Positions 4,017 to 63,885 of a stretch of DNA of 64,000 nt are shown piece by piece. Position 1 is the stretch's first letter, and each line of letters begins with the position of its first letter. Under the pieces are notes generated by a model that saw only the letters and a list, made by a program, of their open reading frames with translations, was not told where the DNA came from and searched no databases. The DNA comes from Clostridiales bacterium (GTDB lineage Bacteria; Bacillota; Clostridia; Saccharofermentanales; Saccharofermentanaceae): assembly GCA_017513085.1 (NCBI GenBank), contig JAFWDK010000003.1:32001-96000 (forward strand). The letters are read 5' to 3'. The translations under genes and the position numbers were made by a program.

Positions 4017-4036
4017 TATTCTGTTTTTTTAATCAG

Positions 4037-4897: not shown

Positions 4898-4921
4898 GAC
4901 GTTTTTAAGGAGGAAAGAACT

Positions 4922-7018: not shown

Positions 7019-7046
7019 GAAAGTAAATAGTGAAGTAAGAAAAAAG

Positions 7047-7106: not shown

Positions 7107-7138
7107 ACTTCACAAGAAGAAAAAATGAGGTGAATAAA

Positions 7139-22478: not shown

Positions 22479-22499
22479 ATAAACCCTCTACCTTCATTA

Positions 22500-22546
22500 G
22501 TTATCATTAGCTAACTTGCGATCGCTAACAGTTAGCTTTTGCTAAC
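22500..22546. promoter_or_regulatory. Two GTTAGC-N4-GCTAAC operators upstream of the ECF operon
   Basis: GTTATC-ATTA-GCTAAC (22500) and GTTAGC-TTTT-GCTAAC (22531), with an extra GCTAAC half-site between them. Confidence 0.85.
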
Positions 22547-22634
22547 CAATAATAAAATATAAGTAGAGAAAAATCCAGTAGTAATTGAACACTTTTTTAG
22601 ATTTGTTCAGTAAAATCGTCATATTTCACGAAAA

Positions 22635-30693: not shown

Positions 30694-30715
30694 ATTAAAT
30701 CACTCCTTTTTTCTA

Positions 30716-30731
30716 GTTAGCTATCGCTAAC
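30716..30731. promoter_or_regulatory. GTTAGC-N4-GCTAAC operator
   Basis: GTTAGC-TATC-GCTAAC just upstream of the RBS of the ABC pair. Confidence 0.85.
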
Positions 30732-30755
30732 CGTCAAACGATAACTTATACAATA

Positions 30756-30779
30756 AAAAAGAGCCTTGCGGCTCTCTTC
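30756..30779 (-). terminator. Intrinsic terminator after tetR
   Basis: Minus strand AGAGCC-GCAA-GGCTCT followed by a T run. Confidence 0.7.
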
Positions 30780-31396
30780 TATTTCACACCCATGATCTTC
30801 AGCCATCCCGGCATGAAGAACTCTTCTAATGTATTCAGATAACTTAGGATCTTTTCGTCTTCCTCTTCATGGAGGATCGACTCAAAGCAAGCCGATAAAT
30901 ACGCAGTGAGCAGCATATGTAATTCTGTTTCACTGATTTCTTTTACCGGATAACCTTTCTCTTTAAAATACTCCAAAGCACGCATAAATTCCTTCTGATT
31001 CTCGATGACGAAATCATGTACGAAATTCTCATATTTCGTTCCCTTCGAACCATTGAGCAAAAGGCGGAATTCTTCTTTCTTCGGAAGGATCACAGTCTTG
31101 ATCAGATCCATGATCGTTTCATCAAAAAGCTTCTCTTCACTTTCCTTGCGTGCTGTCATTTCGTATTTGATCCGGATATGCCGTTTGGTCCAGTTTTCAA
31201 TTTCTGAAACCAGGGGGGAAACAATTGCCTCAAACATGGATGCCTTGTCGGGATAATGCCGATAAAGTCCGGCGGAAGTCATGCCCGCACGGGAACCGAT
31301 GCTACGGATCGATGCAGCTTCAAATCCTTTTTCAAGAAACTCTTCCTTGATCGCCCGGTTCACTTTGATGTGACTTGCAGACTTATCTCTTGGCAT
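30779..31396 (-). CDS. TetR/AcrR family regulator
   Basis: EEFLEKGFEAASIRSIGSRAGMTSAGLYRHY HTH. Start moved to ATG 31396 (RBS AAAGGA). Confidence 0.9.
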   Translation of the reverse strand: MPRDKSASHIKVNRAIKEEFLEKGFEAASIRSIGSRAGMTSAGLYRHYPDKASMFEAIVSPLVSEIENWTKRHIRIKYEMTARKESEEKLFDETIMDLIKTVILPKKEEFRLLLNGSKGTKYENFVHDFVIENQKEFMRALEYFKEKGYPVKEISETELHMLLTAYLSACFESILHEEEDEKILSYLNTLEEFFMPGWLKIMGVK

Positions 31397-31490
31397 GAAC
31401 AACAGACTTCCTTTCATTGTGATCATCGTTAGCTATCATTGATAACCTACATAATCATGCACCATAAAAGGAAGTCTGTCAAGTTCATGA

Positions 31491-34624: not shown

Positions 34625-34644
34625 TCATTCATCCCCCTTGCATC

Positions 34645-34752
34645 GTTAGCATATGCTAACCCGTATATATTGATTAGCCATATTGAAAACGAAAGAAATA
34701 TATTTTTGCGGAATTTCGCAGTTAGTATATGCTAACCGTTGTGCAAATGCAA
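34645..34752 (-). promoter_or_regulatory. feo promoter with two operators
   Basis: GTTAGCATATGCTAAC (34645) and GTTAGTATATGCTAAC (34721). The second overlaps the -10 of TTGCAT(34752-34747)-N17-TATACT(34729-34724). Confidence 0.85.
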
Positions 34753-34775: not shown

Positions 34776-35408
34776 TCATTTTTCACAGAACGAAGCATTT
34801 CGAAGAGTAATATATCTATTGTCTCCTTCCATATAGGTATCAAATACTCCCCTCACCATACACTCTTCGCCAATATCCGGATAATCATCCGGGAAAGTTC
34901 CTTCTTTTTCCATTTCAAATTCGATTCCCTGGGCACAACACTGTGTTGCATCCTGGATCACGCAGGCATAATAACGGATGCCGTTGCTCTCATCGTATGC
35001 CGTTGCAAAAGCGCCCTTCATCTTAACTACTGTGCCTACATACTTTTCCGGATCGATGGACATACTATACACCGTTGCATATACTGCACCTGAAGAAAGC
35101 ACAGTAAGATCGATATCTACACCTTCTTCGTTCTTAGCAAAAGACGGAACAGGCTCAGAAGGAAGTGCCGCGGCTGAAGTATAGGCCGGCAAAGACGTAA
35201 AATCCTGCACGATCTGTTCAGTTTCTATTCCCGATCCCGAAGATCGTCCTTCCAATCCTGATTGAAGAATATCTCCCACACCCGTCTGCTTGCTGGAAGC
35301 ATGTCCTCCTGCCACCGCACCTGTTTGCGTATTTCCGCATCCTGGCAAAGAAAGAACGATAAGACATATTATAGAAACAATTCTTACTCTTACGATAATC
35401 CTGCTCAT
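34776..35408 (-). CDS. Putative lipoprotein with a CC motif, zinc-uptake associated
   Basis: Lipobox-like LPGC; PEKYVGTVVKMKG...ACVIQDATQCCAQGIEF; last gene of the znu-like operon. Confidence 0.7.
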   Translation of the reverse strand: MSRIIVRVRIVSIICLIVLSLPGCGNTQTGAVAGGHASSKQTGVGDILQSGLEGRSSGSGIETEQIVQDFTSLPAYTSAAALPSEPVPSFAKNEEGVDIDLTVLSSGAVYATVYSMSIDPEKYVGTVVKMKGAFATAYDESNGIRYYACVIQDATQCCAQGIEFEMEKEGTFPDDYPDIGEECMVRGVFDTYMEGDNRYITLRNASFCEK

Positions 35409-36247
35409 GCCCGCACACCTCCTTTAGTTTTTCCTATCAGAAAGCAAATCAAAAAACCAACCACATCAACTGTCACGATCGTAGATCCTACCGGTGTCGA
35501 ATACATAAGCGCAATCACGATTCCGGCAAGTGTACAGATCAGTGACAACAGAGCAGCAAAAACCGTGACTGAACGAAAACTCTTGAAGATCCTCATCGAC
35601 GACAGAGCCGGAAAAATCACCAGTGCAGAAATAAGAAGTGATCCTACGAGATTCATCGCGAGAACGATAATAACAGCAATCATGACCGCAATGAGGAAAT
35701 GATACAGTTCCACTTTCATTCCGATGGCTCGTGAAAACTGTTCATCGAATGTTACACAGAAGATTTTGTTATATAACAAAATGAATCCGATAAAAACAAG
35801 AATGGAAAGGACCACACAAAGCCAAACTTCGGTCACCGATAATGTTAAGATCGAGGTCGAACCGAAGAGCGTAGTACATACATCCCCGGAAAGATTTGAC
35901 GAAGTGGAAAACAAGTTCATCAGAAGATACCCGAATGCCAACGCTCCCACAGAGATCATCGCAATCAGGGCATCCCCCTTCAGCTTCGCATTTTGTCCGG
36001 TACGAAGAAGAAGGATCGCGCAGATTATCGTAACCGGAAGGACAAGAAGCATCTCATTCGTAAGTCCGACCACTGCCGCAACACTCATCGCGCCAAAAGC
36101 CACGTGTGACAGACCATCTCCGATATAGGAATACCGTTTCAAAACCAACGTCACACCCAGAAGCGCGGAGCAAAAAGCAATCAGAACACTGACGATCAAG
36201 GCTCTTTGCACCAAAGGCAACTGTAAATACATCCAGAGTTTATCCAT
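35405..36247 (-). CDS. Zn/Mn ABC permease (ZnuB-like)
   Basis: GDGLSHVAFG, LFGS and VGSLLISAL motifs. Confidence 0.92.
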   Translation of the reverse strand: MDKLWMYLQLPLVQRALIVSVLIAFCSALLGVTLVLKRYSYIGDGLSHVAFGAMSVAAVVGLTNEMLLVLPVTIICAILLLRTGQNAKLKGDALIAMISVGALAFGYLLMNLFSTSSNLSGDVCTTLFGSTSILTLSVTEVWLCVVLSILVFIGFILLYNKIFCVTFDEQFSRAIGMKVELYHFLIAVMIAVIIVLAMNLVGSLLISALVIFPALSSMRIFKSFRSVTVFAALLSLICTLAGIVIALMYSTPVGSTIVTVDVVGFLICFLIGKTKGGVRA

Positions 36248-36947
36248 CGTAGCCCACCTCCTTTAAAAAATTGCTTCCGATATCGCTGTTCATATATTCA
36301 TTTTTCGTGCCGAAGTGCACTGTCGTTCCAATATGCAGAATATGACTCGCATAGCGAAGTGCTGCAGCAATATCGTGGGAGATCATGATCACCGTAAGGC
36401 CTTGTCCATGTAGTTCCTCAATTAAGTCATACATTTCACATGTCACTTTAGGATCCAATCCTGATACCGGTTCATCCATCAGCAAAAGTTTTCCTGATGC
36501 GCAAAGTGCCCTTGCAAGAAGGACCCGCTGTTGCTGTCCACCGGACAATTCACGGTAACACCTTTTACCAAGATCTGTGATGTGCATCCTCTCCATAGCG
36601 TGATATGCTTTTTCTTTCTCGTCTTTCAGGTAAAAAGGCCGAAATCCGGCGCGTCCCTGACATCCGGACAGAACAACTTCTGTCACGGATGCGGGGAAAT
36701 CGCGCTGAACCAGAGTCTGCTGCGGAAGATATCCGATTTCATCGGCCTTCAGACCATCACCCATAATAATCTGTCCGGAAATCGGAGGTTGAAGGTGAAG
36801 AACCGTACGTATCAGAGTTGTTTTTCCGGATCCGTTCTCCCCGACAATACACAGATAATCTCCTCTTTGGACTTGAAAACTCAAAGGCGGCAGGATAGCT
36901 TTTGATTCATATCCCAGCACCAGTTTCTCGATAGTCAGAAACGCCAT
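36240..36947 (-). CDS. Zn/Mn ABC ATPase (ZnuC-like)
   Basis: GENGSGKT, GYLPQ, DFPASV and LSGGQQQR motifs. Confidence 0.92.
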   Translation of the reverse strand: MAFLTIEKLVLGYESKAILPPLSFQVQRGDYLCIVGENGSGKTTLIRTVLHLQPPISGQIIMGDGLKADEIGYLPQQTLVQRDFPASVTEVVLSGCQGRAGFRPFYLKDEKEKAYHAMERMHITDLGKRCYRELSGGQQQRVLLARALCASGKLLLMDEPVSGLDPKVTCEMYDLIEELHGQGLTVIMISHDIAAALRYASHILHIGTTVHFGTKNEYMNSDIGSNFLKEVGYDG

Positions 36948-36964
36948 GATCCTCTCCCCCTGCT

Positions 36965-38017
36965 TTATGCGCCCAAGGCCTCTTTTAGTGCTTTTAGATT
37001 GGATTTCATCACGGAAAGATATGTTTTCCCATTTTTCACGTCGTCTCCGGTCGTCGACTGCAAAGAATCCATCACCAGGATCTTTTTTCCTGACCCGGAA
37101 GCATTCTCCAAAACCGTTTCTGCGATTTTGTGTTGAGTTCCCTCAATCGTCAATACTGCCGGAAGATTCAGTTCATCCACTTTCCCTGACAGGAAGACGA
37201 TCGTTTCGAAGCTGGCTTCACTCTCTGCCGAGCATCCGGTAAAAGCAGCATAATAAGTGAGGCCATAATCATCTGCCATATATCTGAAAGGGAATCGGTC
37301 TGCAAACAGTATTGTCTTACAGGATGACTTCTCCACAACCTCTTTATACTCATTATCCAGAGTTTCCAGTTCGGAAATATAGGCATCCAGATTTTTCTTA
37401 TAAATTCCTTTATGTTCCGGTATCAACTTCTCCAGTTCTGCTTCGATCTTCGTGCAGATCACCTTGGCGTGACGAAGTGAAAGCCATACATGCTCATCAT
37501 ATTCAGGTTCCTCATGCTCATGATCATGATCGTGTTCTTCCTCATGGTCGTGGTCTTCGTCATGGTCATGTTCTTCCTCATGGTCATGTTCTTCCTCATG
37601 GTCGTGGTCATGTTCGTGTTCCATACCTTCGACCACTTCTTCTATTTTAACGTTGTCGCCAAGCACCTCAAGGAGATCGATCACGACCATATCTTTATTG
37701 GAAGCCTGTTTCAAAACATCGTCTACCCACTCGTCAGACTCTCCCCCTACATACACAAACATATCGCACGTTGTGATCTTAAGGATATCTTCCGCAGTAG
37801 GTTGATACGAGTGAAGATCCACTCCTTTATCCAAGAGCATCGTGACATCCGCATCTTCTTTATTCTCTCCAAGGATCGACATGACCCAGTCATATTCCGG
37901 GAAGATCGTTGTCACGATCGAGATTTTTTTCGAATCTTTTTTCTTTGTGTTTTGGCAAGCAGAAAAGCTCACTGCAGTCGCTACTGCAGCAAGAAAACCG
38001 ATTAATCTTTTATTCAT
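36965..38017 (-). CDS. Zn ABC substrate-binding lipoprotein with His-rich loop (ZnuA/AdcA-like)
   Basis: Lipobox FSAC, DLHSYQP and DEHVWLS motifs; HDHEEE repeat loop. Confidence 0.92.
   Translation of the reverse strand: MNKRLIGFLAAVATAVSFSACQNTKKKDSKKISIVTTIFPEYDWVMSILGENKEDADVTMLLDKGVDLHSYQPTAEDILKITTCDMFVYVGGESDEWVDDVLKQASNKDMVVIDLLEVLGDNVKIEEVVEGMEHEHDHDHEEEHDHEEEHDHDEDHDHEEEHDHDHEHEEPEYDEHVWLSLRHAKVICTKIEAELEKLIPEHKGIYKKNLDAYISELETLDNEYKEVVEKSSCKTILFADRFPFRYMADDYGLTYYAAFTGCSAESEASFETIVFLSGKVDELNLPAVLTIEGTQHKIAETVLENASGSGKKILVMDSLQSTTGDDVKNGKTYLSVMKSNLKALKEALGA
37511..37622 (-). repeat. Coding 18-bp repeat producing the His/Asp/Glu loop of ZnuA
   Basis: CATGGTCATGTTCTTCCT-like units on the + strand encode HDHEEE. 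Confidence 0.85.
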
Positions 38018-38067
38018 TTTTTTCCTCCACGAATTGATATATGAGTTAGAATCAAATCGTGGATGGA

Positions 38068-38385
38068 TCAATTATTCAATTGTATCTTACGGGAAACCGG
38101 AGTCGGACGCACCTGCACCCACACGGAAAAGGTAAGGATCGCATAAAAAACGGAAAGGCCGATAACCGCCATACCCGCATGACAGCATACTTCTTTCATG
38201 CCGGAGAGAACTTTCTCACACTGCGCCATGATCTCGCAGATCGGGCAATGTTCCTCTTCACACTCGTGATTCATCTCCACGAACAAAAATAATCCAGAGA
38301 AAAGAATGGAGAATGTGATCAATAAACCGAGAAAAACGGAAGCCAATCGTAGAAGTTTCGAAGTCTTCTTTTGCCCTTTCTCCAT
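38068..38385 (-). CDS. Small Cys/His-rich membrane protein
   Basis: Two TM helices flanking HECEEEHCPICEIM..C..CCH; RBS AGGAG; first gene of the znu-like operon. Confidence 0.75.
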   Translation of the reverse strand: MEKGQKKTSKLLRLASVFLGLLITFSILFSGLFLFVEMNHECEEEHCPICEIMAQCEKVLSGMKEVCCHAGMAVIGLSVFYAILTFSVWVQVRPTPVSRKIQLNN

Positions 38386-38414: not shown

Positions 38415-38470
38415 GAAGCGTATAATTGCGAATCATTCGCAATTATACGCTTCCGTAAAATCTCTGTCAA
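38415..38470 (-). promoter_or_regulatory. Consensus promoter overlapped by a Zur-type palindrome
   Basis: TTGACA(38470-38465)-N17-TATAAT(38447-38442); perfect IR GAAGCGTATAATTGCGAAT-C-ATTCGCAATTATACGCTTC. Confidence 0.8.
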
Positions 38471-50687: not shown

Positions 50688-50756
50688 TCACCCCTCCTTG
50701 TCTTATCTCAACCGGCAGATGGAATACCGGAGAGAAAATCTGGTGAACATTATGTG

Positions 50757-50772
50757 GTTAGCGTACGCTAAC
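50757..50772. promoter_or_regulatory. GTTAGC-N4-GCTAAC operator
   Basis: GTTAGC-GTAC-GCTAAC, a perfect palindrome. Confidence 0.85.
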
Positions 50773-50780
50773 TGCTGTAC

Positions 50781-50810
50781 AAAAAGAAAAGCGACCAGGT
50801 CGCTTCTTTT
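50781..50810 (-). terminator. Terminator after the second tetR
   Basis: AAGCGACC-A-GGTCGCTT flanked by A and T runs. Confidence 0.6.
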
Positions 50811-50814
50811 GTTT

Positions 50815-51429
50815 TCAGAAACCAAGCACCGCCCGCCATCCGGGGATGAAGAATTTCTCAAGAGTCTTCGCATAGTGCATCGCCTGCTCTTTGGTGAAAT
50901 CATGTTCTACCGCCGCTACAACTGCATCGATGTTCATAGTCACCAAAAGATGCATCTCCTCATCTGAAACCTCATTGACCGTGAATCCATTCTTCCTCGC
51001 ATTCGCTATATATTCATGGGTATTTTTTTCTTCCATAAGAGCAATATCATGAACGAAATTGGCATACCTTGTTCCCTGGGAAGAGCAGATGATCAGTTTA
51101 AATGCATCAAGGTGCGAATAGATATAATCCAGCATGATCGAAGTGGAAGAAGAATCTTCCCACACGCGCGTTGTTTCCGGAAGATTCAGTGTCTCATTTT
51201 CTTTCTTTGCCAGATCATCGTACAAAAGCATCATGCCGTCGATAGCCGGATCCACAAGTGCCGAAAACATCTCTTCTTTACTCTCGAAATGTTTGTAAAG
51301 ACCGGATGCACTCATTCCGGCAGCAGAAGCGATCCTGCGCATAGATGCGTCCATAAAACCGTATGTACGAAACTCTTCGTATGCCGCTTTCATGATCAGA
51401 TCGTGATGTGCTTTCTTATCGCGAACCAT
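50815..51429 (-). CDS. TetR/AcrR family regulator
   Basis: EEFRTYGFMDASMRRIASAAGMSASGLYKHF HTH; paralog of 30779-31396. Confidence 0.9.
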   Translation of the reverse strand: MVRDKKAHHDLIMKAAYEEFRTYGFMDASMRRIASAAGMSASGLYKHFESKEEMFSALVDPAIDGMMLLYDDLAKKENETLNLPETTRVWEDSSSTSIMLDYIYSHLDAFKLIICSSQGTRYANFVHDIALMEEKNTHEYIANARKNGFTVNEVSDEEMHLLVTMNIDAVVAAVEHDFTKEQAMHYAKTLEKFFIPGWRAVLGF

Positions 51430-51546: not shown

Positions 51547-51595
51547 TTGACGGATTTGGATGAACCCGATAAGATTGTAGTTAGCATACACTAAC
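51547..51595 (+). promoter_or_regulatory. xylA promoter with an operator at the start site
   Basis: TTGACG(51547)-N17-TAAGAT(51570); GTTAGC-ATAC-ACTAAC at 51580. Confidence 0.75.
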
Positions 51596-51635
51596 TCGTT
51601 GTGCAAATTCACTATTATAAAATGGAGGTATCACT

Positions 51636-52964
51636 ATGAGTGAAATTTTTAAGGGTATCCCTCAGATCAAGTATGAAGGACCAGAAAGCAAGAATCCGAT
51701 GGCATTTAAGTACTATGATCCTGACCGAGTCGTTCTGGGAAAGAAAATGAGCGAGCAGCTTCCGTTTGCTATGGCATGGTGGCATAACCTTTGTGCCAAT
51801 GGCGTAGATATGTTCGGACGCGGCACGGCAGACAAACGCTTCGGGGCTGAGACTGAAGGAACAATGGAGCACGCCAAGGCGAAAGTAGACGCCGGTATCG
51901 AGTTCATGAAGAAACTCGGCATTAAATACTTCTGCTTCCATGATGTCGATCTCGTTCCGGAAGCGGATGATATTAACGAAACCAACAAAAGACTGGATGA
52001 GATCACGGATTATATCCTTGAGAAGACTTCCGGTACCGACATTAAGTGTCTCTGGGGTACAGCCAACATGTTCAGTAATCCCCGTTTCATGAATGGCGCC
52101 GGTAGTACAAATGATCTGGATGTTTATTGCTTTGCCGCAGCGCAGGTCAAGAAAGCCATCGAACTTACTGTAAAGCTCGGCGGACGAGGATACGTTTTCT
52201 GGGGTGGCCGCGAAGGCTACGAGACCCTTCTGAATACCAAGGTCAAATTCGAGCAGGAGAACATCGCCAACCTGATGAAAATGGCCAGAGATTATGGAAG
52301 AAAAATCGGATTTACCGGGACTTTCCTGATCGAACCGAAGCCGAAAGAGCCGATGAAGCACCAGTATGACTTCGATGCGGCAACAGCGATCGGATTCCTG
52401 AAAGAATACGGCCTGGACAAGGACTTCATGATGAATATTGAAGCGAATCACGCAACTCTGGCAGGTCATACATTCCAGCATGAACTTCGTATCAGCCGCA
52501 TCAACAACATGCTCGGTTCCATCGATGCGAACCAGGGCGATATCATGCTGGGCTGGGATACGGACTGCTTCCCGAGCAACGTATATGACACGACACTTGC
52601 TATGTATGAGATCCTGAAGAATGGCGGCCTTCCGGTCGGCATCAACTTCGACTCGAAGAACAGACGTCCGAGCAATACCTATGAGGATATGTTCTATGCG
52701 TTCATTCTGGGTATGGATTCCTTTGCTTATGGTCTTCTGAAGGCTGCAGAGATGATCGAGGACGGCCGCCTCGAGAAGAATATCGAAGAACGTTACGCTT
52801 CCTTCTCTTCCGAACTCGGACAGAAAGTAAGATCCGGAGAGTCCACGCTTGAAGAACTGGCAGCAAGAGCTGCCGAACTGAAGGCTCCTCAGAATCCTGT
52901 ATCCGGTAAACAGGAATACCTCGAGGGTGTTCTCAATAATATTATTCTATCGAATAACGATTGA
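51636..52964 (+). CDS. xylA: Xylose isomerase (class II)
   Basis: FHDVD, FWGGREG, IEPKPKEP, NIEANH, GWDTD and NFD motifs. Confidence 0.96.
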   Translation: MSEIFKGIPQIKYEGPESKNPMAFKYYDPDRVVLGKKMSEQLPFAMAWWHNLCANGVDMFGRGTADKRFGAETEGTMEHAKAKVDAGIEFMKKLGIKYFCFHDVDLVPEADDINETNKRLDEITDYILEKTSGTDIKCLWGTANMFSNPRFMNGAGSTNDLDVYCFAAAQVKKAIELTVKLGGRGYVFWGGREGYETLLNTKVKFEQENIANLMKMARDYGRKIGFTGTFLIEPKPKEPMKHQYDFDAATAIGFLKEYGLDKDFMMNIEANHATLAGHTFQHELRISRINNMLGSIDANQGDIMLGWDTDCFPSNVYDTTLAMYEILKNGGLPVGINFDSKNRRPSNTYEDMFYAFILGMDSFAYGLLKAAEMIEDGRLEKNIEERYASFSSELGQKVRSGESTLEELAARAAELKAPQNPVSGKQEYLEGVLNNIILSNND

Positions 52965-53016
52965 CAAAAGAACTCCTCGATGGTATAAAGAAATGAGTTA
53001 GCATATGCTAACTCAT
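52961..53016 (+). promoter_or_regulatory. Strong promoter plus perfect operator with no convincing downstream CDS
   Basis: TTGACA(52961)-N17-TATAAA(52984) with TGn extension; ATGAGTTAGCATATGCTAACTCAT at 52993-53016. Confidence 0.85.
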
Positions 53017-53180
53017 ATCTTAATTCTAAATTCCCTCCCGCGAGTGCTTTTCTGGAATGGGCACAGGGAGGGAATTAATTATTCTAAAAAAGTTTCACAT
53101 CGATCCTTCGTCAAATATACGAAAGAAACGGTCCTGTCAGTGATATCCTCACCGCAGGACCGTTTCAGCGTATATCTTTT
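52996..53180 (+). ncRNA. Candidate operator-controlled sRNA
   Basis: Bounded by the promoter and a terminator; contains hairpin AATTCCCTCCC...GGGAGGGAATT (53029-53075); no RBS-led ORF. Confidence 0.4.
53115..53180. terminator. Terminator hairpin between the convergent + transcript and eno
   Basis: GAAACGGTCCTG...CAGGACCGTTTC with outer ATATACG/CGTATAT and a CTTTT tail. Confidence 0.7.
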
Positions 53181-53190
53181 CCTAGAAGAG

Positions 53191-54635
<1,445 letters not shown>

Positions 54636-54745: not shown

Positions 54746-55744
54746 TCATTCGAACTCAGAGATGGAAACATGCTCTCCTTTCCGGATCCTGTTCCGAAGG
54801 GTCATCAGTTCATGATCCTTTTTCTCTGCCAGGAGCAGAACGGCCGCTTCCTGATCATCCCGATGGATGATCTTATCAATACGGCCATTTCTGATCACGA
54901 TACGTTTCGGAGACATCAGGGAAAGAATCGGGTCATGGGTCGCGATCAAGACGATCTTATCATTACCTGTCAGAAGCTCCATCGCCTTTCTTCGATCGAT
55001 ACCTGCATTTTCGATCTCATCGATCAAAACGATCGGCGCACGTGAGAGGTAGGCACAGTCTGCAATCATCAGCGCACGTGACTGTCCTCCGCTTAAGGCT
55101 GTCACCGCGGTATCCCGGGAAAAAGGCTCACCAGCCAGGGAAACAGCTACCTCATACACTTTCTGCACTTTCCCGGGGATCTCTTCCTTTCTGAGGAAAC
55201 ACTCGGCATGCATGGTAAGAAATTCTTCCACATTCATATCCAGGACGAAATTCATATTCTGCGAAAGCTGAGCGATCGAACGTCTTCTTTCGCCTGTTTT
55301 GAGCCATTCTTCCTTATTTTTTCCGTCAATCAGTATCGTTCTCTGTGTCGGAGTGTCCTTTAGTGCCTGCCACTCGATATCTTCCAGGAGGCGGCTCTTT
55401 CCGGAGCCGGTTTCACCGACAATGGCGATCATTTCACCTTTTCGGATAGTTATAGGATCGAAGCACTCACTCGCACCATCTTTCCCAACTCCCGGAATGA
55501 TCGTGATGGATCCGACACTTCGGATCTCCTCGGAGAGACATTCCGACGCACTTCGGAGATAGGCAGAAAATTCCTCTTCCACTTCGTTTCGGCTCATCTT
55601 TCTCTGCTCGAAAAATGAATCCGGAAGCTCCATCAGGTTTTCAGAAAAGCTCTTTTCCTTATCCCAGATCACCTCAAAGTCATCCAGATAGTATGGCAGA
55701 TAGGGGTAGTCCTTCTCCAGTTGCAAAAGCGGGATCGTCAGCAT
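54746..55744 (-). CDS. ABC-type ATPase with an N-terminal extension and no partner permease
   Basis: GETGSGKS, LSGGQSRA, IDEIENAG and ATHDP motifs. Confidence 0.85.
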   Translation of the reverse strand: MLTIPLLQLEKDYPYLPYYLDDFEVIWDKEKSFSENLMELPDSFFEQRKMSRNEVEEEFSAYLRSASECLSEEIRSVGSITIIPGVGKDGASECFDPITIRKGEMIAIVGETGSGKSRLLEDIEWQALKDTPTQRTILIDGKNKEEWLKTGERRRSIAQLSQNMNFVLDMNVEEFLTMHAECFLRKEEIPGKVQKVYEVAVSLAGEPFSRDTAVTALSGGQSRALMIADCAYLSRAPIVLIDEIENAGIDRRKAMELLTGNDKIVLIATHDPILSLMSPKRIVIRNGRIDKIIHRDDQEAAVLLLAEKKDHELMTLRNRIRKGEHVSISEFE

Positions 55745-55760
55745 TCATGTACCTTCTTTC

Positions 55761-56444
55761 TCAGATCTTGATGTGTTTAACGTTTCCGATCTGGTACTCG
55801 GTTCCTATCTTTGTTTCACCTAAACAATAGGAACAGAGCGCCATAGGCATCGGAAAACGAAGCGTCTCATTTTCGATTTCTCTCTCCATAGCCATATTCC
55901 GGATCGCCCGTGTGATCTCTGAAATTCCCTGTCCGGTAAGCCCGTTGACAGGAAATATCAGTGCTTTTGGATTAGAGGTCTCAACTCTTCGCATGAACAC
56001 TTCTCTTTCTGCTTGAGAAACGATATCTCCTTTTGTAATAAGTACAATATCTGCCAGTTTCAGGAGAGGACCGATTTTTCTGGGAGCCCGGATCCCGCTT
56101 AACTGATCGATCACACAGACAGCCAGCACATTTTTGATGTAGGGCGAGCATCGGTTACAAAGGCCGGCACTCTCCGTAAAAAGATAGTCCAGCTCTTCCT
56201 TTTTCCCCCAATCATAGACAGTCTGAATATTCGTGATGTAATAGTGATCGGGACAAAGTTCGGAAGAAAGTCCCTTTGCCGATGGGATCCCGGCCTGACT
56301 ATAGGTCTTGTCGTCTTCGGTCTGGAGGCAGTCAAACTTACACGCCCCCACTTTACTTCCATCTCTCATAATTTCTTTTAAGATCCGCGTCATAACGGTA
56401 GTTTTGCCCGTTGCAGGCGGTCCGGCAAAGGTTACCAGCTTCAT
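55761..56444 (-). CDS. HypB/UreG-like P-loop GTPase (putative metallochaperone)
   Basis: GPPATGKT, LCPDH, ESAGLCNRC, TKGD and a C-terminal CSYC. Confidence 0.85.
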   Translation of the reverse strand: MKLVTFAGPPATGKTTVMTRILKEIMRDGSKVGACKFDCLQTEDDKTYSQAGIPSAKGLSSELCPDHYYITNIQTVYDWGKKEELDYLFTESAGLCNRCSPYIKNVLAVCVIDQLSGIRAPRKIGPLLKLADIVLITKGDIVSQAEREVFMRRVETSNPKALIFPVNGLTGQGISEITRAIRNMAMEREIENETLRFPMPMALCSYCLGETKIGTEYQIGNVKHIKI

Positions 56445-57370
56445 TACTTTTCCTCCGTCATGATCTTCTTACATCTTTGGATTATTTCCGGAAGGGAGGG
56501 ATCATAGAGATACTCCCAGCCGACAAAGCGAAGACTTCCGGGAAGAGCATTGACAACACCTGTAATGTTACTCGGGAAGAATCCCTTCTCTCGGAAGATC
56601 CTGCCGGCCTCCTCGCGGCAGAGGATGGACATGAGCCTTTCCGCCTCGGGATTTGATTTTGAAGTTACAACAAGTGGCAGGATCGGTGCACCATCGCTGA
56701 ACCAGATGAGTTTCATTCCCTTCTGACGGGCTTTGATCTCCCCGAAGATCCAAGGCATCAGGTAGATATATGGTTTTTCGCCTTCGATTCCACCCGGCTT
56801 GATCATCTGTGAGGGATGCACGATCGCACAGATATTCTTTCTTAATCGTCTGATTCCCTCGTCTCCCGCAACTTGATGAATATATGTCAGAATGATCCCG
56901 TCAAACATGTGGCCGTCATCCGGAAATGCAATACTGTTTTCAAACTCACCCGAAAGCAGGTCAGAAAAAGCCTTCGGTTCACTTCTTCCCTTCGACTGAT
57001 CGGTATCCACGACCATGACCAGAGGAATGCACGAATAGATATCAAACATTCCTTTCGGATCAGAAAAGGAAGCAAACGCCGGATTCCCGAGAAGTGTTTC
57101 TCCTGATGCATGAAATCCTTTTTCTTTTATGACAGGATGATTGACGAGACCTTCGATACCTGTCCCCATGAAAACATCCGGATCACACTCTTTAAAGATC
57201 TTATCGACCCAGGATAAACCGAACTCCGCTAATGCGATGTTATATTCTTTCCGGTCAGAGATATACTCATCCAGATAATCCTGAAAAGGAAGCTGCACCA
57301 CACATGGAACACGTCCGACCAGTTTCGCTTCTTTATTCTCTGCTGTGTAATGAAGTTCTTCTTCTCTCAC
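56444..57370 (-). CDS. Substrate-binding-fold protein without a signal peptide
   Basis: VPC, HPSQM and WFSDGA motifs; GTG start with RBS GGGAGG; no hydrophobic leader. Confidence 0.7.
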   Translation of the reverse strand: MREEELHYTAENKEAKLVGRVPCVVQLPFQDYLDEYISDRKEYNIALAEFGLSWVDKIFKECDPDVFMGTGIEGLVNHPVIKEKGFHASGETLLGNPAFASFSDPKGMFDIYSCIPLVMVVDTDQSKGRSEPKAFSDLLSGEFENSIAFPDDGHMFDGIILTYIHQVAGDEGIRRLRKNICAIVHPSQMIKPGGIEGEKPYIYLMPWIFGEIKARQKGMKLIWFSDGAPILPLVVTSKSNPEAERLMSILCREEAGRIFREKGFFPSNITGVVNALPGSLRFVGWEYLYDPSLPEIIQRCKKIMTEEK

Positions 57371-58208
57371 GAAATCGATTCCTCCCTTCGACAACTGTCA
57401 CCTGTTCGCTTATGTCCCGACTGAGTACATCAATGGGTAGTACACATACATGTCTTTTCTCTTCGATCATAAAATCACGGATCCGCACATCAACATCAAA
57501 AGCCCTGCAAAGATTTTCTTCGGAAATCACTTCGTTTGCATTTCCGAATGAATTGCTTCCATCACGATTCAGGATCAGGGCTTTATCGGATATAGCCAGC
57601 GCGTGCTCCGGATAGTGAGTATTTACAATGGATGAGATGCCCCGTTCTCTGCACAGCTTATGGATCGTATTGATGACGATCAGCTGGTTTTTAAAGTCGA
57701 GATTCGACTCCGGTTCATCCAGTATCAGAAGTTCAGGATCTGTAGCTAATGCTCTGGCAATAAGGACCATCTGCAGTTCACCACCGGAGATCTCATTACA
57801 CAGCTTCCCGCGAAGCCGGCTCATCCCGACCATATCCAGACATTCTTCCGCAAAGCGGTAGTCTTTCTTCGTCGGCTGCGCCAGTATTCCCAGGTGGGCA
57901 TTTCGTCCGAGAAGAACCATCTCTTCTGTGGTATAGGAGAATGCGGAGCGCTTTGCCTGCGGCACATATCCTATCTTCTTCCAGATCTCCTGGTTCTTCC
58001 ATTCGTGCCATGGTTTACCATTGATATATGTACTGCCGGCACGCCATGGAAGGAAGCCGAGCGTGCATTTCAGCAGAGTCGTCTTGCCGACACCATTTGA
58101 TCCCAGGATCGAAAGGATCTCTCCCTCTTTGACAGAGAAAGAAAGGTTTTTAAGGATGTCAGGTCCTTTCTTATATCCGAATGATGCATCTTTCACCTCA
58201 AAGATCAT
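57333..58208 (-). CDS. Iron-chelate/cobalamin ABC ATPase (FepC/BtuD-like)
   Basis: GSNGVGKT, GYVPQ, ISGGELQ and DEPESNLD motifs. Confidence 0.9.
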   Translation of the reverse strand: MIFEVKDASFGYKKGPDILKNLSFSVKEGEILSILGSNGVGKTTLLKCTLGFLPWRAGSTYINGKPWHEWKNQEIWKKIGYVPQAKRSAFSYTTEEMVLLGRNAHLGILAQPTKKDYRFAEECLDMVGMSRLRGKLCNEISGGELQMVLIARALATDPELLILDEPESNLDFKNQLIVINTIHKLCRERGISSIVNTHYPEHALAISDKALILNRDGSNSFGNANEVISEENLCRAFDVDVRIRDFMIEEKRHVCVLPIDVLSRDISEQVTVVEGRNRFRERRRTSLHSRE

Positions 58209-59203
58209 GTTTTTACACCTCCTGTCCGACGAAGCAGAATAATAAATACCGGGGCGCCGATAATCGCAGTAAGGATTGAGATCGGCAGTTCCGCAGCGGT
58301 TGCAGATCTCGCAACTGTATCAATAAGCAGAAGGTACGTCGCTCCCAGTCCGATGCTGGCCGGAATAACATATTTATTATTGTTTCCGAACATCATACGG
58401 GAGATATGCGGGATCAAAATACCGATCCATCCGACCTTTCCGCACATGGCGATGACAGATCCGGTAATCATGGTAGAGGATACGATCGTAAGTCCCCTCA
58501 TCAGTTTCAGGTTGATTCCCATTGCCCTTGCCTCATCATCGTTTAATGAAAGAACATTCAGTTTCCATCTAAGACAGAAGAGAATGATGATACCGATAAG
58601 CATCGGGATCGTTCCGATCCACAGTTTTTGGAAACTGGTTCCGGATAAACTGCCCATAAGCCAGTATGTGATTTCCGGAAGTACATCCTGCGGATCCGCT
58701 ACATACTTTATAAGAGAAACCAGAGCTTCAAAAAGTGAGCTGATCACCATACCGGATAGGATCAGCATGACAAGCGAAGACTCACCTTTCACACGGCTGA
58801 TCATGTACACCAGCCATACGGATAAGAGACCCATAGCAAAAGCCGTTCCCTGAATTCCAAGAGATGGAAGCCGCAGCATAATTCCGAGCGTCGCCCCAAA
58901 AGAAGCGCCCGTGGCGACTCCTAAAGTATCAGGAGTCGCCAGGGGGTTGGAAAACATACTCTGAAAGGCTGCACCGGCAACGGCCAGACCCGCGCCTGCG
59001 ATAATCGCCAGGATCGATCTGGGAAGACGGATCTTATACAGTACCGTCTTCACATTCGGATCATCGACCTTCATGCCCAGGAGGACTTTTACGCAGTCTT
59101 TGATGGGGATCGAGTACCGGCCCACACCTAACGCGATCAGAAAAGATGCGACAAGTGCAATAGTAATGCCGATCACCCAGATTAATTCTGTTTTCTTTTT
59201 CAC
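58205..59203 (-). CDS. FecCD/BtuC family permease
   Basis: IRLPR, NPLATPDTLGV, WLMGSL and GWIGILIPH motifs. Confidence 0.93.
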   Translation of the reverse strand: MKKKTELIWVIGITIALVASFLIALGVGRYSIPIKDCVKVLLGMKVDDPNVKTVLYKIRLPRSILAIIAGAGLAVAGAAFQSMFSNPLATPDTLGVATGASFGATLGIMLRLPSLGIQGTAFAMGLLSVWLVYMISRVKGESSLVMLILSGMVISSLFEALVSLIKYVADPQDVLPEITYWLMGSLSGTSFQKLWIGTIPMLIGIIILFCLRWKLNVLSLNDDEARAMGINLKLMRGLTIVSSTMITGSVIAMCGKVGWIGILIPHISRMMFGNNNKYVIPASIGLGATYLLLIDTVARSATAAELPISILTAIIGAPVFIILLRRTGGVKT

Positions 59204-59224
59204 GTGTTCACCTTTGTCCCCGGA

Positions 59225-60481
59225 TCAGAGGCCTCTTGCCGCATCACGTGACGGAATGAACATCATATCCAGCTGCTCGTCAGAAAGATCATATCCGCAC
59301 ATTTCCTTATAGTATTCCTTTGCGATCTTACGGATATCCGTATCCTTGAAAAGATCCGGATAGATCACAGAAGCCATCCACTGCATAGTAACCGGAGAAT
59401 CTCCACCCGGTGTATAGCTTCTATAAAGACCAAGAGGCATCTTATAGACACGCTTGTTCTTTACTGCATTGATCGTGCTCCAATCATCTGTACCGATAGC
59501 ATTGTTATAGAGATCTTCCGGCTGTGTGCCGCAGAAATTGGTGATAATGATAATATCCGGATTCCATTCATATACCTGTTCCATCGATATCTTCAGGATA
59601 GAACCATCCGGCACTTCGCTGGCAACATTGTATGCATTTACGGACTCACACCACCACTGGCCGAAGAAGTTCACACCGGAGGCCACCATCGCCGCATCTG
59701 TGTACTTGAAGAGAACCAGGACGCGTGCCTTCTGATCATCCGGAATGTCCTTTGTTTTTTCGATGATATCCGCATGGACAGCATCACTCTTCTCCATAGC
59801 CTTCTTTGCAAAATCCGAACCGCCGAAGATTTGGTCGAGAAGGTCGATCCAATGTTCATAGGTCTCGATAATGTCATACTTCCAGGCAGAAGCAGATGTA
59901 GTAACTGCCGGGATGCCGGCTTCACGGATCGCTTTTGCCTGTTCCTGTCCGACACCAATGACAATATCCGGCTTAAGGATCAGGAGTTCCTCCAGATTTA
60001 CCTCATCACCACTGATAAAAGCTGTATTTGCGTTTAAGATCTCCGGGTAGATCTGTCCAAGAAGGCCGTTTTCCGCAGCACTCATAGATACCGGATGGAT
60101 ACCCACGATCTTTTCCGCAGAACCAAGATACTCTGCAATAACAGATGCCAGCGGATAGAAAGACCCTACTGCAATTCGATTGATCGTATTAGGAACCTCA
60201 ACGGTATCTCCGGCATGGTCGACAACAGTATGTGTGCCATTGGGATCACCAAACGGGTTCTCGGAATCTTTGCTTTCTCCTTTGACCTCTGTGCTGGTCT
60301 CGGAAGACTCCTCCGAAGAACTTTCGGAAACACTCTCCGACGTCTCCGCACTGGTCTCCTCGATCGTTTGCGTATCAGAAGTCGACGAAGCGCTCGTTTC
60401 CTCATCTTTCTTTGCACAGGCCGACAGGGCGCAAAGTGCAATAGCTACCGACATTAAGCCGGCAAGAAGTTTTTTCTTCAT
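59225..60481 (-). CDS. Iron-chelate/cobalamin-type binding lipoprotein
   Basis: Lipobox LSAC; S/T/E-rich linker; VVDHAG, NLEELLILKPD, SMEQVYEWNPD and AVKNKRVY motifs. Confidence 0.9.
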   Translation of the reverse strand: MKKKLLAGLMSVAIALCALSACAKKDEETSASSTSDTQTIEETSAETSESVSESSSEESSETSTEVKGESKDSENPFGDPNGTHTVVDHAGDTVEVPNTINRIAVGSFYPLASVIAEYLGSAEKIVGIHPVSMSAAENGLLGQIYPEILNANTAFISGDEVNLEELLILKPDIVIGVGQEQAKAIREAGIPAVTTSASAWKYDIIETYEHWIDLLDQIFGGSDFAKKAMEKSDAVHADIIEKTKDIPDDQKARVLVLFKYTDAAMVASGVNFFGQWWCESVNAYNVASEVPDGSILKISMEQVYEWNPDIIIITNFCGTQPEDLYNNAIGTDDWSTINAVKNKRVYKMPLGLYRSYTPGGDSPVTMQWMASVIYPDLFKDTDIRKIAKEYYKEMCGYDLSDEQLDMMFIPSRDAARGL

Positions 60482-60557
60482 AATAATCCTCTTTCTACTT
60501 ACTTTAGTAAGAACTATGTATATTTTTAAGCCGGTCGTTTAAAAGCGCCGAACGGGC

Positions 60558-61697
60558 TTACAGATCATGTTCAAGCCATTTATTTTCATCCAGGTAATTC
60601 CAGTAACTGTTTTTCCCTACACGGCTTGAGACGGAGTACTGCGGAAAAGGTATCTGATCTTTTACCCCTCCCGAAAACTCTATAAATAACGGGTCCGCGA
60701 TCAGAAGATCCTTCTGATCCTTCACTACGGAAAGGATCGTATCTTCATCACTTAGATAAGTGGATACATCATCTTCATGTTCGATCGTATATAGCTTGCA
60801 GTCTATATTCTCTGACCGCAGGAAGTTTCGTATCGAGTCCCCGATCACCGAGTCAGCAATAATGACTCCGGATCGTCGGGAAGTCTTAGGACTAAGCACC
60901 TTAAACACAGCGGTCTTCCCTTCGCGGACCAGTTCAAGATACGAACTCATCTGTTTCTGTCCTATCGGGAAATTCACGATATAAGGTGTCTGATACTTTT
61001 TTTCCATAGCTTTGGCGATCGCAAGTCCCGCCTGGTTCCAAACCAGGTTCAAAGTGACTTTCTCCGGATACTGGTAAAACAAAAGAGAGCCGTACATGCC
61101 CTGTTCCTGCATCAGACAGATACCATTCTCCGTAAGTCTGCCGCAAAGGCTGTCATACACTTCCTGATGCATATCCAGCGGGGAGATGCCCGGAATAGCT
61201 ACTGTTCCTCCATCTTTCCAGGGTTCGCGCTTCTCCGGGTTTTTCTCGTAATAGTCTGTGAGTGCAAAGTAAGCCATAAGAATACCGTCATAGTAAGAAC
61301 CTTTAATTCCCGCGGTCGGAAATCCGAAACAAGGGATACCGGTTCTATTCTCGACCGCTCTGGCGACTCCGTTAAAATCAAAACCGATGACATTCGGCAC
61401 CGGACTTCCGACAATAGCTATAAACTTCGGATGTCGTTCCAAAGCATTCTTTGTGATCTTACCGATCAGTTTCTCATCGTCACCGAGGATAGCATCCACC
61501 TTTCGAAGGCTTGTGCAATACACCATAGAATGACTGCCGTACCATCTCGGCTCATCGAAATGGGTATAATTTCCCGTGCAGCCTGCCGCATCATGAATGC
61601 AGATCATACCGCCGAGATCAAAAAGCGCGGAGCATACCCCTGAATAATCTCCTGCAAAAGGAGGAAGATACATACAAACTTTATGTTTTTTATTCAT
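60558..61697 (-). CDS. Nitrogenase component 1-like subunit (NifK/BchB-like)
   Basis: PFAGDYSGVCSAL, IHDAAGCTG, ILGDDEKL and IVGSPVP..IGFD motifs. Confidence 0.85.
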   Translation of the reverse strand: MNKKHKVCMYLPPFAGDYSGVCSALFDLGGMICIHDAAGCTGNYTHFDEPRWYGSHSMVYCTSLRKVDAILGDDEKLIGKITKNALERHPKFIAIVGSPVPNVIGFDFNGVARAVENRTGIPCFGFPTAGIKGSYYDGILMAYFALTDYYEKNPEKREPWKDGGTVAIPGISPLDMHQEVYDSLCGRLTENGICLMQEQGMYGSLLFYQYPEKVTLNLVWNQAGLAIAKAMEKKYQTPYIVNFPIGQKQMSSYLELVREGKTAVFKVLSPKTSRRSGVIIADSVIGDSIRNFLRSENIDCKLYTIEHEDDVSTYLSDEDTILSVVKDQKDLLIADPLFIEFSGGVKDQIPFPQYSVSSRVGKNSYWNYLDENKWLEHDL

Positions 61698-62947
61698 CAG
61701 ACGATTCCTCCGTATTCATCGATCAGTTTTCGGATATCCGCTTTTTCTTTCATCGCGAACCGCATAGTATCCATAAGGATCCTTATTCCCTGATATCCGA
61801 GCATTCCTTCATCAGAAGAGATATCTGCAACATATCGCGCATTGCTTAAGTAGGCAGCTTCTTCGCCTACTGCCAAAGCTATTGTTTCCGTTTCCGAACG
61901 GAAAACCGAATCCGGATGATCCCCCTGAATGATCTCGACCTGCGGATACTCGTTAAGGAGGATATCGGCATACTTCTGATCGGGTCCCACCACTTCAGAA
62001 AGATAGACACGCGTTACACGGAAACCGTATTCCAGAAGTGCTACGGCCAGAGATAGGGGAAATACGGTTGCACTGTCAGAAACAAAGACCGGCACATCCG
62101 CAACTTCTTCTCTGGCATAATAGATCGCCTGTTCACATAAGGAACGGTCGTCTTTAATCTTTTCAGAAAGATCTTCTCCCAAAAAGTCAGACAGATCCTG
62201 ATACTCTTTAGTGACAGTATCAATATCATAGGATATCGGCATTTCCACGTGTGTAGCGCCGGTTCTTTTCTCCAGACGTCTCAGCGCATATCTCACAAAT
62301 GGTTTTATCACTATAGATCTTCCGGAGCGGGACATCTCCTCATACTCTGAAAAAGTACTGCACGAGGAAATCTGGCGGACCATATGGCCATTTTGATTCA
62401 GGACCCGGATCAGCTCGTTATCTTCCGGGATCCCGACGAAGTTTCCCCAGAGCGTTACACCATCATCCGTCTTCTCCCAATCGGGTAGCACACTTAACAT
62501 CGCATCAAACGTCGTGACTGCCGGTGGCATCTTGGTGGAAGATGCAATTGGATTCATATGTCCGGCACGGAAAAGGATATCCGGATATCTTTTCCCGAGG
62601 ATCGCGGTCACTTTCTCCATATCCGTACCGATAAAATCATCCAGGCAGGAAACATAAATAAAGAGAAGACGGATGTCCTTTTCCGTTCTTTCCAGAAGCT
62701 CATCCACGCCATCCAGGATCTCCTGATCGTATCCCTCCACGATGTCGCTCTGGTCAATATAAAGATAAGAAATACGGTCTTTATAGTGATGCTGGATCGC
62801 GCCGAGCGCCCCATGCCGGAAGCACGCTGACGGGCAGACAAACAAAAGATAAGATCCGGGGATAAGTGCAGCGACACGGATGATTCCCCATCCGTCATGC
62901 GCAGGATTGCAGTAACAAAGGTTCGGTTCAAATCGCATGTTCATCAC
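61697..62947 (-). CDS. Nitrogenase component 1-like subunit (NifD/BchN-like)
   Basis: [14 protein letters not shown] and [11 protein letters not shown] motifs; coupled to the nifH-like gene. Confidence 0.85.
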
Positions 62948-63756
62948 CTCCGAAGCAGATAAATCAATTCTTCGGTATACGGATCTTTTTGTATGGACGT
63001 ATCATCGCCATGGCAGAGACTGATTATTCTATCTGCCAATTTTTCATAATCCTTAGCGATCGACGATCGGGGAAACTTCTCGATAACAGTCTTTCCCTCC
63101 TGTTCCGCCGCCTGCACCATCTTACTTCTATGGATATGTGAAATAACCGGAAGGTCGTGTTCTCTGGCAAAGCGGGTAACAAGATCCTTTTCATTCTCAA
63201 CAAGCCGCTCATTTAAAATCAGGCCACGTACACGGGCGTATCCGCGCTCTTTGAAATTGTCTACGGCACGGGAAATATTATCTGCGGCAAAAAGAGCCAT
63301 CATCTCACCGGAAGTAACGATAAAGACATGTTCCGCATATCCGTCACGGATCGGCATGGCAAAACCGCCACAGACTACATCGCCGAGAACATCATATAGA
63401 ACGATATCCGGGGCGTATTTTTCAAAAGCACCGAGCTCTTCCAGTTTCTGGAGAGCCGATATGATACCAAGACCAGCACATCCGATACCGGGCGTCGGTC
63501 CACCCGATTCTACACAGAGGACACCGTTATATCCATCGTGAACGAGATCAGAAAGCTCGACGTCTTCACCCTTCTCCTTGATCATTCCGAGGACCGTGCT
63601 GATCTTCTCGCCCCCCATCAGGTTTTTAGTAGAGTCCGCTTTCGGATCGCAACCGATCTGCATGACTTTATAACTGCGTGAAAGAGCGGCTGCAAGATTC
63701 GACGTTGTGGTTGATTTGCCTATTCCGCCTTTACCATAAATAGCTATCTTTAACAA
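62944..63756 (-). CDS. NifH-like Fe protein (Group IV / Nfl type)
   Basis: [31 protein letters not shown] and [14 protein letters not shown] motifs; both [4Fe-4S] cysteines present. Confidence 0.93.
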
Positions 63757-63810
63757 TTTTCTACCCCTGTATTGCCTTTTCTATAAAATTGAATATAATA
63801 ATCTCAATCG

Positions 63811-63826
63811 GTTAGCCACTGCTAAC
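63811..63826. promoter_or_regulatory. GTTAGC-N4-GCTAAC operator upstream of the nitrogenase-like operon
   Basis: GTTAGC-CACT-GCTAAC. Confidence 0.85.
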
Positions 63827-63885
63827 TGTGACAGTATACTAAAAAGGAGTTTCAAAAAAAGTTGCCTGTGCAACATCTCAAAAAA

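Follow-up and report, generated by a model that had tools for sequence, protein, structure and literature searches.

A putative metal-regulated promoter without a gene, apparently copied from the enolase promoter-leader, between xylA and eno of a Clostridiales bacterium

RyhB, PrrF and FsrA are Fur-repressed, iron-sparing small RNAs (sRNAs), and type-I sRNAs derived from 3' untranslated regions (3' UTRs), such as DapZ and MicL, are transcribed from a promoter of their own, situated where the upstream coding sequence (CDS) ends. In mycobacteria, the report on MrsI (ncRv11846; PMC6016810) describes an IdeR-associated iron-sparing sRNA with an IdeR site near its start and a 6-nt seed in an apical loop. 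Here, we analyzed a 64-kb stretch of the genome of a Clostridiales bacterium (contig JAFWDK010000003.1, positions 32,001 to 96,000; hereafter the window), and searched these 64 kb for a regulator gene and for targets. Between the convergent genes xylA and eno lies a promoter, an operator and a hairpin without a gene, which we call the orphan (Table 1). We read the orphan, with a probability of roughly 0.5, as a metal-regulated promoter whose most likely product is a short non-coding RNA and which arose as a copy of the enolase promoter-leader.

The layout proposed by a first-pass annotation of this sequence is present: a TTGACA-N17-TATAAA promoter with an extended -10 element begins at the xylA stop codon (52962-52964, overlapping the -35 box), a perfect palindrome of 24 bp sits at the start site, and a strong stem-loop follows downstream. 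The pattern TTGACA-N17-TATAAW matches three times in the window against 0.02 expected, at the orphan, at the eno promoter and at a promoter at 38442-38470; a general promoter scan that demands T at the final -10 position misses the orphan site. Within the palindrome, the core operator AGTTAGC-ATAT-GCTAACT (52996-53013) covers the predicted transcription start at about 52995-52997, and if transcribed the palindrome would form a 5'-terminal hairpin. The RNA from 52996 to 53180 folds at -65.1 kcal/mol (z = -7.7), and none of 200 shuffled sequences folds as well. The apical loop of its long hairpin contains GGAAU. The downstream stem-loop stops some 25 nt short of the stop codon of eno and has its better U-tract on the eno strand; on the plus strand, only UUU follows the stem. 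Between 52964 and 53125, a terminator scan and folding identified no terminator-like site besides the palindrome itself, which is flagged as terminator-like on both strands. The orphan element would therefore also be the 3' UTR of xylA.

Table 1. Coordinates of the orphan and its neighbors in the window (MFE, minimum free energy; SD, Shine-Dalgarno sequence).
Feature	Position	Strand	Basis or remarks
xylA (xylose isomerase)	51636..52964	+	NCBIfam TIGR02630, E 6.6e-199
sigma-A-type promoter	52961..52989	+	TTGACA 52961-52966, 17-nt spacer, TGn-extended TATAAA 52981-52989
perfect 24-bp palindrome ATGAGTTAGCATATGCTAACTCAT	52993..53016	both	sequence inspection and palindrome scan
pyrimidine/AU-rich linker cauaucuuaauucua	53014..53028	+	unpaired in MFE and centroid folds; 11/15 identical to sister genome L001
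long hairpin	53029..53076	+	arms aauucccuccc (53029-53039) / gggagggaauu (53066-53076), inner stem gugc..gcac
variable spacer	53077..53124	+	without conserved sequence, start codon or SD
bidirectional terminator-like stem-loop	53125..53166	both	13-bp stem and inner 4-bp stem; common to xylA/orphan (+) and eno (-)
eno (enolase)	53191..54483	-	NCBIfam TIGR01060, E 1.7e-198; convergent with the orphan; stop codon 53191-53193; start set at 54483 because the first position of the model falls on residue 39 of an over-long open reading frame
eno promoter and 5' leader	54484..54635	-	paralogue of the orphan

For comparison, we scanned genome contigs on the basis of eno and collected 80 loci (763,651 bases), mostly from rumen and gut Clostridia with a few Treponema bins. 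One of these, the sister genome L001, is a Ruminococcaceae metagenome-assembled genome record whose eno protein is 99% identical to that of the window and which has the same convergent xylA/eno arrangement and the same orphan. As the first-pass annotation had stated, the gap holds no open reading frame (ORF) with an SD-like leader. The same position in L001 holds the orphan, and no ORF is conserved there. We rejected a small protein as the product: a 95-aa ORF at 53005-53292 and a 37-aa ORF with an ATT start are not conserved, and a 33-aa ORF that begins with ATG in L001 has ATA as its start in the window, followed by a stop as second codon.

The eno gene itself has an upstream region built in the same order, with TTGACA-N17-TATAAA (54635-54607), an operator (54599-54582) that lies 7 nt beyond the -10 box, a linker, a hairpin (~54569-54513; arms aauuccucucc / ggggaggaauu), an SD and the ATG. 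The orphan shares with this leader the hexamers, the operator, the linker and the long CU/GA hairpin (74 of 122 positions identical over about 120 nt), and the homology stops just past the 3' arm; unlike the eno leader, the orphan has no SD, start codon or CDS. A 12-nt pattern made from the arm matches only these two places. Judged by this alignment, the orphan is a diverged inverted paralogue (~60% identity) of the eno promoter-leader and not a leader in use. We also considered whether the orphan's tail is a remnant of the eno CDS and rejected this, as local alignment does no better than shuffled sequence: in comparisons of the tail with the L001 tail and with the 5' part of the eno CDS, 131 and 135 of 200 shuffles, respectively, reach the observed score.

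Conservation of the orphan between the window and L001 is well above what the neighboring genes lead one to expect under neutrality. At four-fold degenerate sites, 42% of positions differ (217 sites in eno, 173 in xylA), a neutral identity of 58%, while from the -35 box to the 3' arm 91 of 116 orphan positions (78%) are identical. Both hexamers and the block gatggtataaagaa around the -10 box are unchanged, as are all 22 positions of the hairpin arms and 17 of the 18 of the operator; the extension of the palindrome from 18 to 24 bp is not kept. The inner stem has changed with compensation, from gugc/gcac in the window to ugucu/agaca in L001, and across five aligned sequences 7 of the 26 hairpin pairs show compensatory double changes. 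Moreover, the L001 orphan folds at z = -8.6, and a different hairpin occupies the position of the terminator. The likeness does not stem from recent gene conversion between the inverted copies, because each of the two orphans is closer to the other than to the eno leader in the same genome. By these measures, the orphan is conserved in the sister genome above the neutral level.

These data bear directly on the idea that the orphan is a relic, either left by an inverted duplication of part of the eno promoter-leader or surviving from the leader of a deleted gene, whose promoter may still fire but whose RNA has no role of its own. A leftover leader had been offered as an alternative in the first-pass annotation, and the clear homology to the eno promoter-leader comes close to it. 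A relic would also suit the very narrow distribution (window and L001), the lack of an exposed seed or a specific target signal, and the turnover of gene content in this slot, since in another locus, L062, the eno/xylA gap holds a real gene for an IdeR-like regulator. On the other side, 91/116 identity with intact hexamers, operator and arms, set against 58% at four-fold sites, compensatory change in the inner stem, orthologous orphans that cluster together contrary to recent gene conversion, and a tail without trace of eno coding sequence all argue against decay. We consider a relic unlikely, though it is an explanation to be taken seriously.

Far from being a unique operator, the palindrome belongs to an abundant regulon motif. 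Allowing two mismatches at most, AGTTAGC-N4-GCTAACT occurs 14 times in the window (0.07 expected), and the core GTTAG-N6-CTAAC occurs 12 times exactly (0.055 in shuffled sequence). Eleven of these 12 cores are intergenic on the ORF map, and the remaining one lies inside a glnA-like ORF. The 80 eno loci hold 103 exact cores spread over 57 loci, compared with 0.85 in shuffles, and 98 of the 103 were called intergenic. Of 115 sites, 72 have a -10-like hexamer whose end lies 5-9 nt upstream, and the distances peak sharply at 6-8 nt; offsets of 6-8 nt upstream of GTTAG collect 74 matches, whereas each offset of 13 nt or more collects 1-12 (mostly 2-7). This peak indicates that the motif usually covers the transcription start. 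Operators flank eno (52996 and 54582), and xylA has a copy at its own promoter (51579-51596). The orthologous site in L001 is the only one in the loci that lies within a convergent gap without a nearby gene start, except that a site at L038:10400 is not judgeable.

The genes behind the motif are biased toward metals. In the window they comprise feoB and an ECF transporter (two sites each), four ABC-exporter pairs accompanied by AraC or TetR genes, a nifH-like/nifDE-like operon that includes a siderophore-type ABC importer, and finally eno and xylA, the latter next to a TetR gene that diverges from it. For the relatives we compiled 41 proteins behind the motif and 6 further ones, among them DUF3793 (7), ABC exporters (6), ZIP (4), flavodoxin (3), ABC ATPases (3), two each of FeoB, Trep_Strep, AraC, TetR, DUF2325 and methyltransferases, single cases of HMA, permease, ATC hydrolase, xylA and a DtxR-family repressor (L039:7397-7777), and four without a family, one of which is a wrong-strand ORF. 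Sites thus precede genes of iron uptake or iron sparing (feoB, ZIP, flavodoxin, HMA, the siderophore-type ABC operon and ABC exporters). With seven cases, DUF3793 is a consistent member of the regulon; a literature search on this domain returned only a paper on a fungal plant pathogen.

Two of the relatives' loci suggest what reads the motif. L039 encodes a 127-aa protein with Fe_dep_repress and Fe_dep_repr_C domains and has the motif over that gene's own -35 box. In L062, a 122-aa IdeR-like homologue (6383-6748) directly follows eno, at the end of a co-directional putative operon (3093-6748) that runs DUF3793-flavodoxin-His_Phos_1 (gpmA-like)-eno-IdeR-like regulator with the motif at its head; a DtxR-family regulator also appears as a weak match in L010. 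Aligned with IdeR of M. tuberculosis (1b1b), the L062 protein keeps the equivalents of M10, C102, E105 and H106, and PMC11672702 names M10 and C102 as sulfur ligands that favor Fe(II) over Mn(II). Moreover, GTTAG/CTAAC half-sites also occur in the actinobacterial DmdR1/IdeR boxes of PMC7174319 (Table 1), with a spacing of 1 nt there and 6 nt here. Since the motif stands at IdeR-like genes, the metal ligands are of the iron type and the half-sites are shared, the likely regulator is an iron-responsive repressor of the DtxR/IdeR family, not Fur. The first-pass proposal of metal repression is thus supported by the metal-uptake and iron-sparing genes of the regulon, with a regulator that is probably IdeR-like. 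Overall, the consensus operator (A/G)GTTAG(C)-N4-(G)CTAAC(T/C) looks like that of an IdeR-type iron regulon in Lachnospiraceae and Ruminococcaceae. Our searches found no paper on this operator or on a DtxR-type regulon in Clostridia.

A palindrome of this kind could instead be a generic stabilizing hairpin at the 5' end of mRNAs, or the site of some other global factor, in which case the orphan would not be metal-regulated. The motif is very dense, at about half of the window's transcription units, its position at the start site is fixed, the housekeeping gene eno has it in 53 of 79 loci, and the window contains no regulator gene. On the other side, the half-sites are conserved in primary sequence beyond pairing, the sixth pair of the operator being non-complementary in 38 of 103 sites, and some sites lie over a -35 or -10 box (the L039 ideR gene, window positions 34720 and 43159) and would escape transcription. 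The gene set, moreover, is strongly biased toward metals and includes flavodoxin and an IdeR-like gene, and the half-sites are seen in the DmdR1/IdeR boxes listed in Table 1 of PMC7174319, albeit at another spacing. We hold this reading to be improbable.

Several features of these regulon genes deserve mention in their own right. The minus-strand operon 54746-63827, with its operator at 63810, encodes a nifH-like protein, two nitrogenase-component-1-like proteins, an IsdE-like binding protein, a FecCD/BtuC-type permease, an SBP_bac_6 protein, a CobW/HypB-like GTPase and an ABC ATPase, and is presumably related to metal or tetrapyrrole. In L002, positions 2650-4340 hold three units, HMA, DUF3793-flavodoxin and eno, each with its own operator. 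Paired operators lie upstream of feoAB (34644-34737; 76 nt apart, one overlapping a -10 box) and of the ECF transporter (22499-22547; 31 nt apart), and L002, L024, L039 and L052 have comparable pairs with distances of 75-134 nt. Two TetR-family paralogues, 33% identical, at 30715-31426 and 50756-51429, each lie just upstream of an operator-bearing ABC-exporter pair, and one of them is separated from xylA by the operator at 51579; TetR may have a local role at these particular sites. In L039, about five tandem copies of a ~77-nt repeat (~6900-7390), each with a short gtccctac-n-atagggac palindrome, separate the IdeR-like gene from a small Cys-rich ferredoxin-like ORF.

In the region 38415-38470 the window also contains a different perfect palindrome (19-1-19), which overlaps the -10 box of a promoter with a perfect TTGACA-N17-TATAAT; an AdcA/ZnuA-like zinc ABC operon (35405-38385) lies downstream. 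The palindrome resembles a Zur-type box, so that the window would have a second, separate metal operator.

What the orphan RNA might do depends on which of its parts are exposed. The first-pass annotation had described a hairpin with an anti-SD-like arm and pointed to the C-rich regions that FsrA uses. The hairpin is there, but the arm is not free: in the MFE, centroid and consensus folds every base of UUCCCUCCC is paired, within an 11-bp perfect stem that the inner stem extends. An iron-sparing sRNA in the manner of RyhB, FsrA or IsrR that uses this arm as an anti-SD seed on mRNAs of iron proteins would agree with an operator from an iron-type regulon and with a non-coding element, and C-rich regions are the usual seeds in Firmicutes according to PMC9410917. 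The same paper, however, describes the C-rich regions of IsrR as single-stranded and IsrR as free of G stretches, and next to IsrR the paired C-rich arm of the orphan, whose G-rich partner is equally conserved, makes the seed idea weak. Rfam 15 gave no family either: the window has no match at gathering score, 52800-53400 has only chance-level matches at E<=10, and the eno leader at E<=5 and 13 loci at gathering score yielded nothing beyond one tRNA and chance-level matches. We judge such an anti-SD sRNA very improbable and do not think that the buried C-rich arm is the acting part.

The exposed and conserved pieces of the orphan are the 5-nt loop block GGAAU and the U-rich linker. In both genomes, GGAAU is the only conserved block in the apical loop of the orphan, and AAUUCC the only one in that of the eno leader; the two are complementary over 5 nt, which would allow a kissing-loop contact or the titration of a protein that binds the hairpin. 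This complementarity is a lead, not a result. Our working guess is a regulatory role for the orphan RNA, linked to eno or to the response to iron limitation and exerted through its conserved hairpin or apical loop. The narrower proposal, an enolase regulator derived from the eno leader and induced by iron limitation that acts on eno mRNA or on a factor binding it, seems to us a long shot.

The orphan could instead act in cis. It could send antisense or convergent transcription into the 3' end of eno, with overlap of the 3' ends, serve as a structured 3' UTR of xylA, or be an additional operator of high affinity through which the repressor becomes locally concentrated at eno and xylA. Its promoter faces eno across a terminator that is weak on the plus strand, the element doubles as the xylA 3' UTR with no other terminator up to 53125, and operators stand around eno (52996 and 54582) and before xylA (51579). 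Yet a strong hairpin keeps the unit short in both genomes although its sequence has been replaced, a role as DNA operator only leaves the compensatory changes in the hairpin unexplained, and the eno promoter has the same operator, so that both would be derepressed together. A cis-acting element is one of the explanations to which we give little credence.

In the model we favor, a short RNA made from a metal-regulated promoter, an Fe2+-loaded dimeric repressor of the IdeR/DtxR type would bind AGTTAGC-N4-GCTAACT over the start site and block initiation. When iron is scarce, release of the repressor would let the near-consensus promoter over the stop codon of xylA fire. The predicted transcript of about 170 nt (from ~52996 to 53170) would consist of the operator hairpin, the U-rich linker, the long CU/GA hairpin and the variable spacer, and would end at the bidirectional terminator common to xylA and eno.

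A number of observations weigh against this model. The orphan's start site, 3' end and metal response are all read from sequence. Its -10 box ends in A where T is the usual letter, part of the conservation around the -35 box could reflect xylA coding constraint, and, with only three U after the stem on the plus strand, read-through into antisense eno is possible. The orphan was seen in 2 of the 81 genomes compared (window and L001), the relatives being covered at their eno loci; in L002, whose eno is 93% identical, different genes follow eno and the orphan is absent from that place. Similarly, the covariance model R1, run over 827,651 bases, recovered its five training sequences and no further orphan copy, its next-best matches being weaker eno leaders and bare palindromes (33.6 bits at best). 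On the side of function, the C-rich arm is wholly paired, and no stretch of more than about 5 nt stands out as an exposed, conserved seed. Against the start regions of the window's 49 called ORFs, cofold or duplexfold brought out no specific target: in the cofold scan, those regions gained up to -15.8 kcal/mol and the eno leader -9.2. As for the regulator, tblastn with the L039 and L062 proteins found no IdeR-like gene in these 64 kb, and the motif is tied to the regulator by two to three loci and by regulon content.

The eno leader is itself widespread. An exact core at most 260 nt from the eno start, followed by a long hairpin, occurs in 53 of 79 loci, a count that omits L067, where eno is cut at the locus end. 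This conserved 5' leader of enolase across Lachnospiraceae and Ruminococcaceae is possibly an undescribed cis-regulatory leader. The eno leaders of L001-L080 often have an (A/G)TAAATCAT box and then a long hairpin with a 5' arm that is often CUCCUUU-like. In the window, the ATG of a 6-codon frame lies 7 nt beyond the G-rich 3' arm of the eno-leader hairpin, and the frame ends 1 nt before the eno ATG (~54486-54512, minus strand); this relation is not kept in L001, L003 and L006, which makes a leader peptide doubtful. We also considered a mobile or invertible cassette around eno; no recombinase or transposase was seen among the annotated neighbors, and the repeats are only ~60% alike. Six records titled Treponema, Spirochaetaceae or Desulfovibrionaceae (L071, L075 and L078; also L025, L063 and L072) have a Clostridia-like eno of 82-87% identity, which points to horizontal transfer or bin contamination, and three of the six have the same operator core 24-40 nt upstream.

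If transcribed and iron-regulated, the orphan would be a candidate metal-responsive sRNA of rumen Clostridia, where our literature search found no paper on a metal-responsive sRNA of this kind, and, if its proposed origin is true, an example of an sRNA born from a duplicated mRNA leader. Should the idea of a leader-derived enolase regulator prove true, an IdeR-type regulon of rumen Clostridia that has not been described before would link glycolysis to iron status. Of greater importance, perhaps, is the broader result: an apparent IdeR-type iron regulon with flavodoxin, feoB, DUF3793 and, unexpectedly, enolase would give direct handles on the iron economy of fiber-degrading gut anaerobes.

The orphan is not a member of any described sRNA family, and its likenesses are to several. 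With IsrR, FsrA, RyhB and PrrF it would share a metalloregulator box at the promoter and stem-loops followed by a terminator; it differs in showing no homology to them and in its regulator, probably IdeR-like and not Fur. IsrR is close in length (174 nt, against ~170 nt predicted for the orphan; PMC9410917), but its C-rich regions are single-stranded and it lacks runs of G, whereas the orphan's C-run is paired with a conserved G-run. The orphan also resembles sRNAs of the DapZ/MicL type in that its promoter overlaps the 3' end of xylA and its RNA would share the xylA terminator; an origin by duplication of another gene's leader would be unusual among them. Its paralogue, the eno 5' leader of rumen and gut Clostridia, has the same hexamers, the operator at the start site, and a homologous linker and long hairpin, while the orphan points in the opposite direction, is without SD, start codon and eno CDS, and has GGAAU in place of AAUUCC in the apical loop.

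At the level of regulation, the closest described systems are the iron-box regulons of DtxR, IdeR and DmdR1 in Actinobacteria (PMC7174319, PMC11672702). The likeness extends to a palindrome with GTTAG/CTAAC half-sites, a regulon of iron uptake and sparing and, in the clostridial regulator, the ligand set M10/C102/E105/H106; the half-sites, in contrast, are 6 nt apart rather than 1. The clostridial regulator is also smaller (122-127 aa) and has no third, SH3-like domain, and its regulon includes eno, xylA and a gpmA-like gene. Among sRNAs, MrsI matches the orphan in having a DtxR/IdeR-family operator, predicted in the orphan's case, close to where a short non-coding RNA begins or would begin. 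In both, a hairpin domain at the 5' end precedes an intrinsic terminator, and the most conserved part lies before the terminator. The apical-loop block GGAAU would be the best seed candidate of the orphan, if there is any, and compares with the apical-loop seed of MrsI. The two differ in phylum and in sequence, with no Rfam similarity, the orphan's half-sites are 4-6 nt apart, unlike the actinobacterial 19-bp iron box, and the orphan has an mRNA leader as its paralogue. By analogy, the orphan RNA would work most like MrsI.

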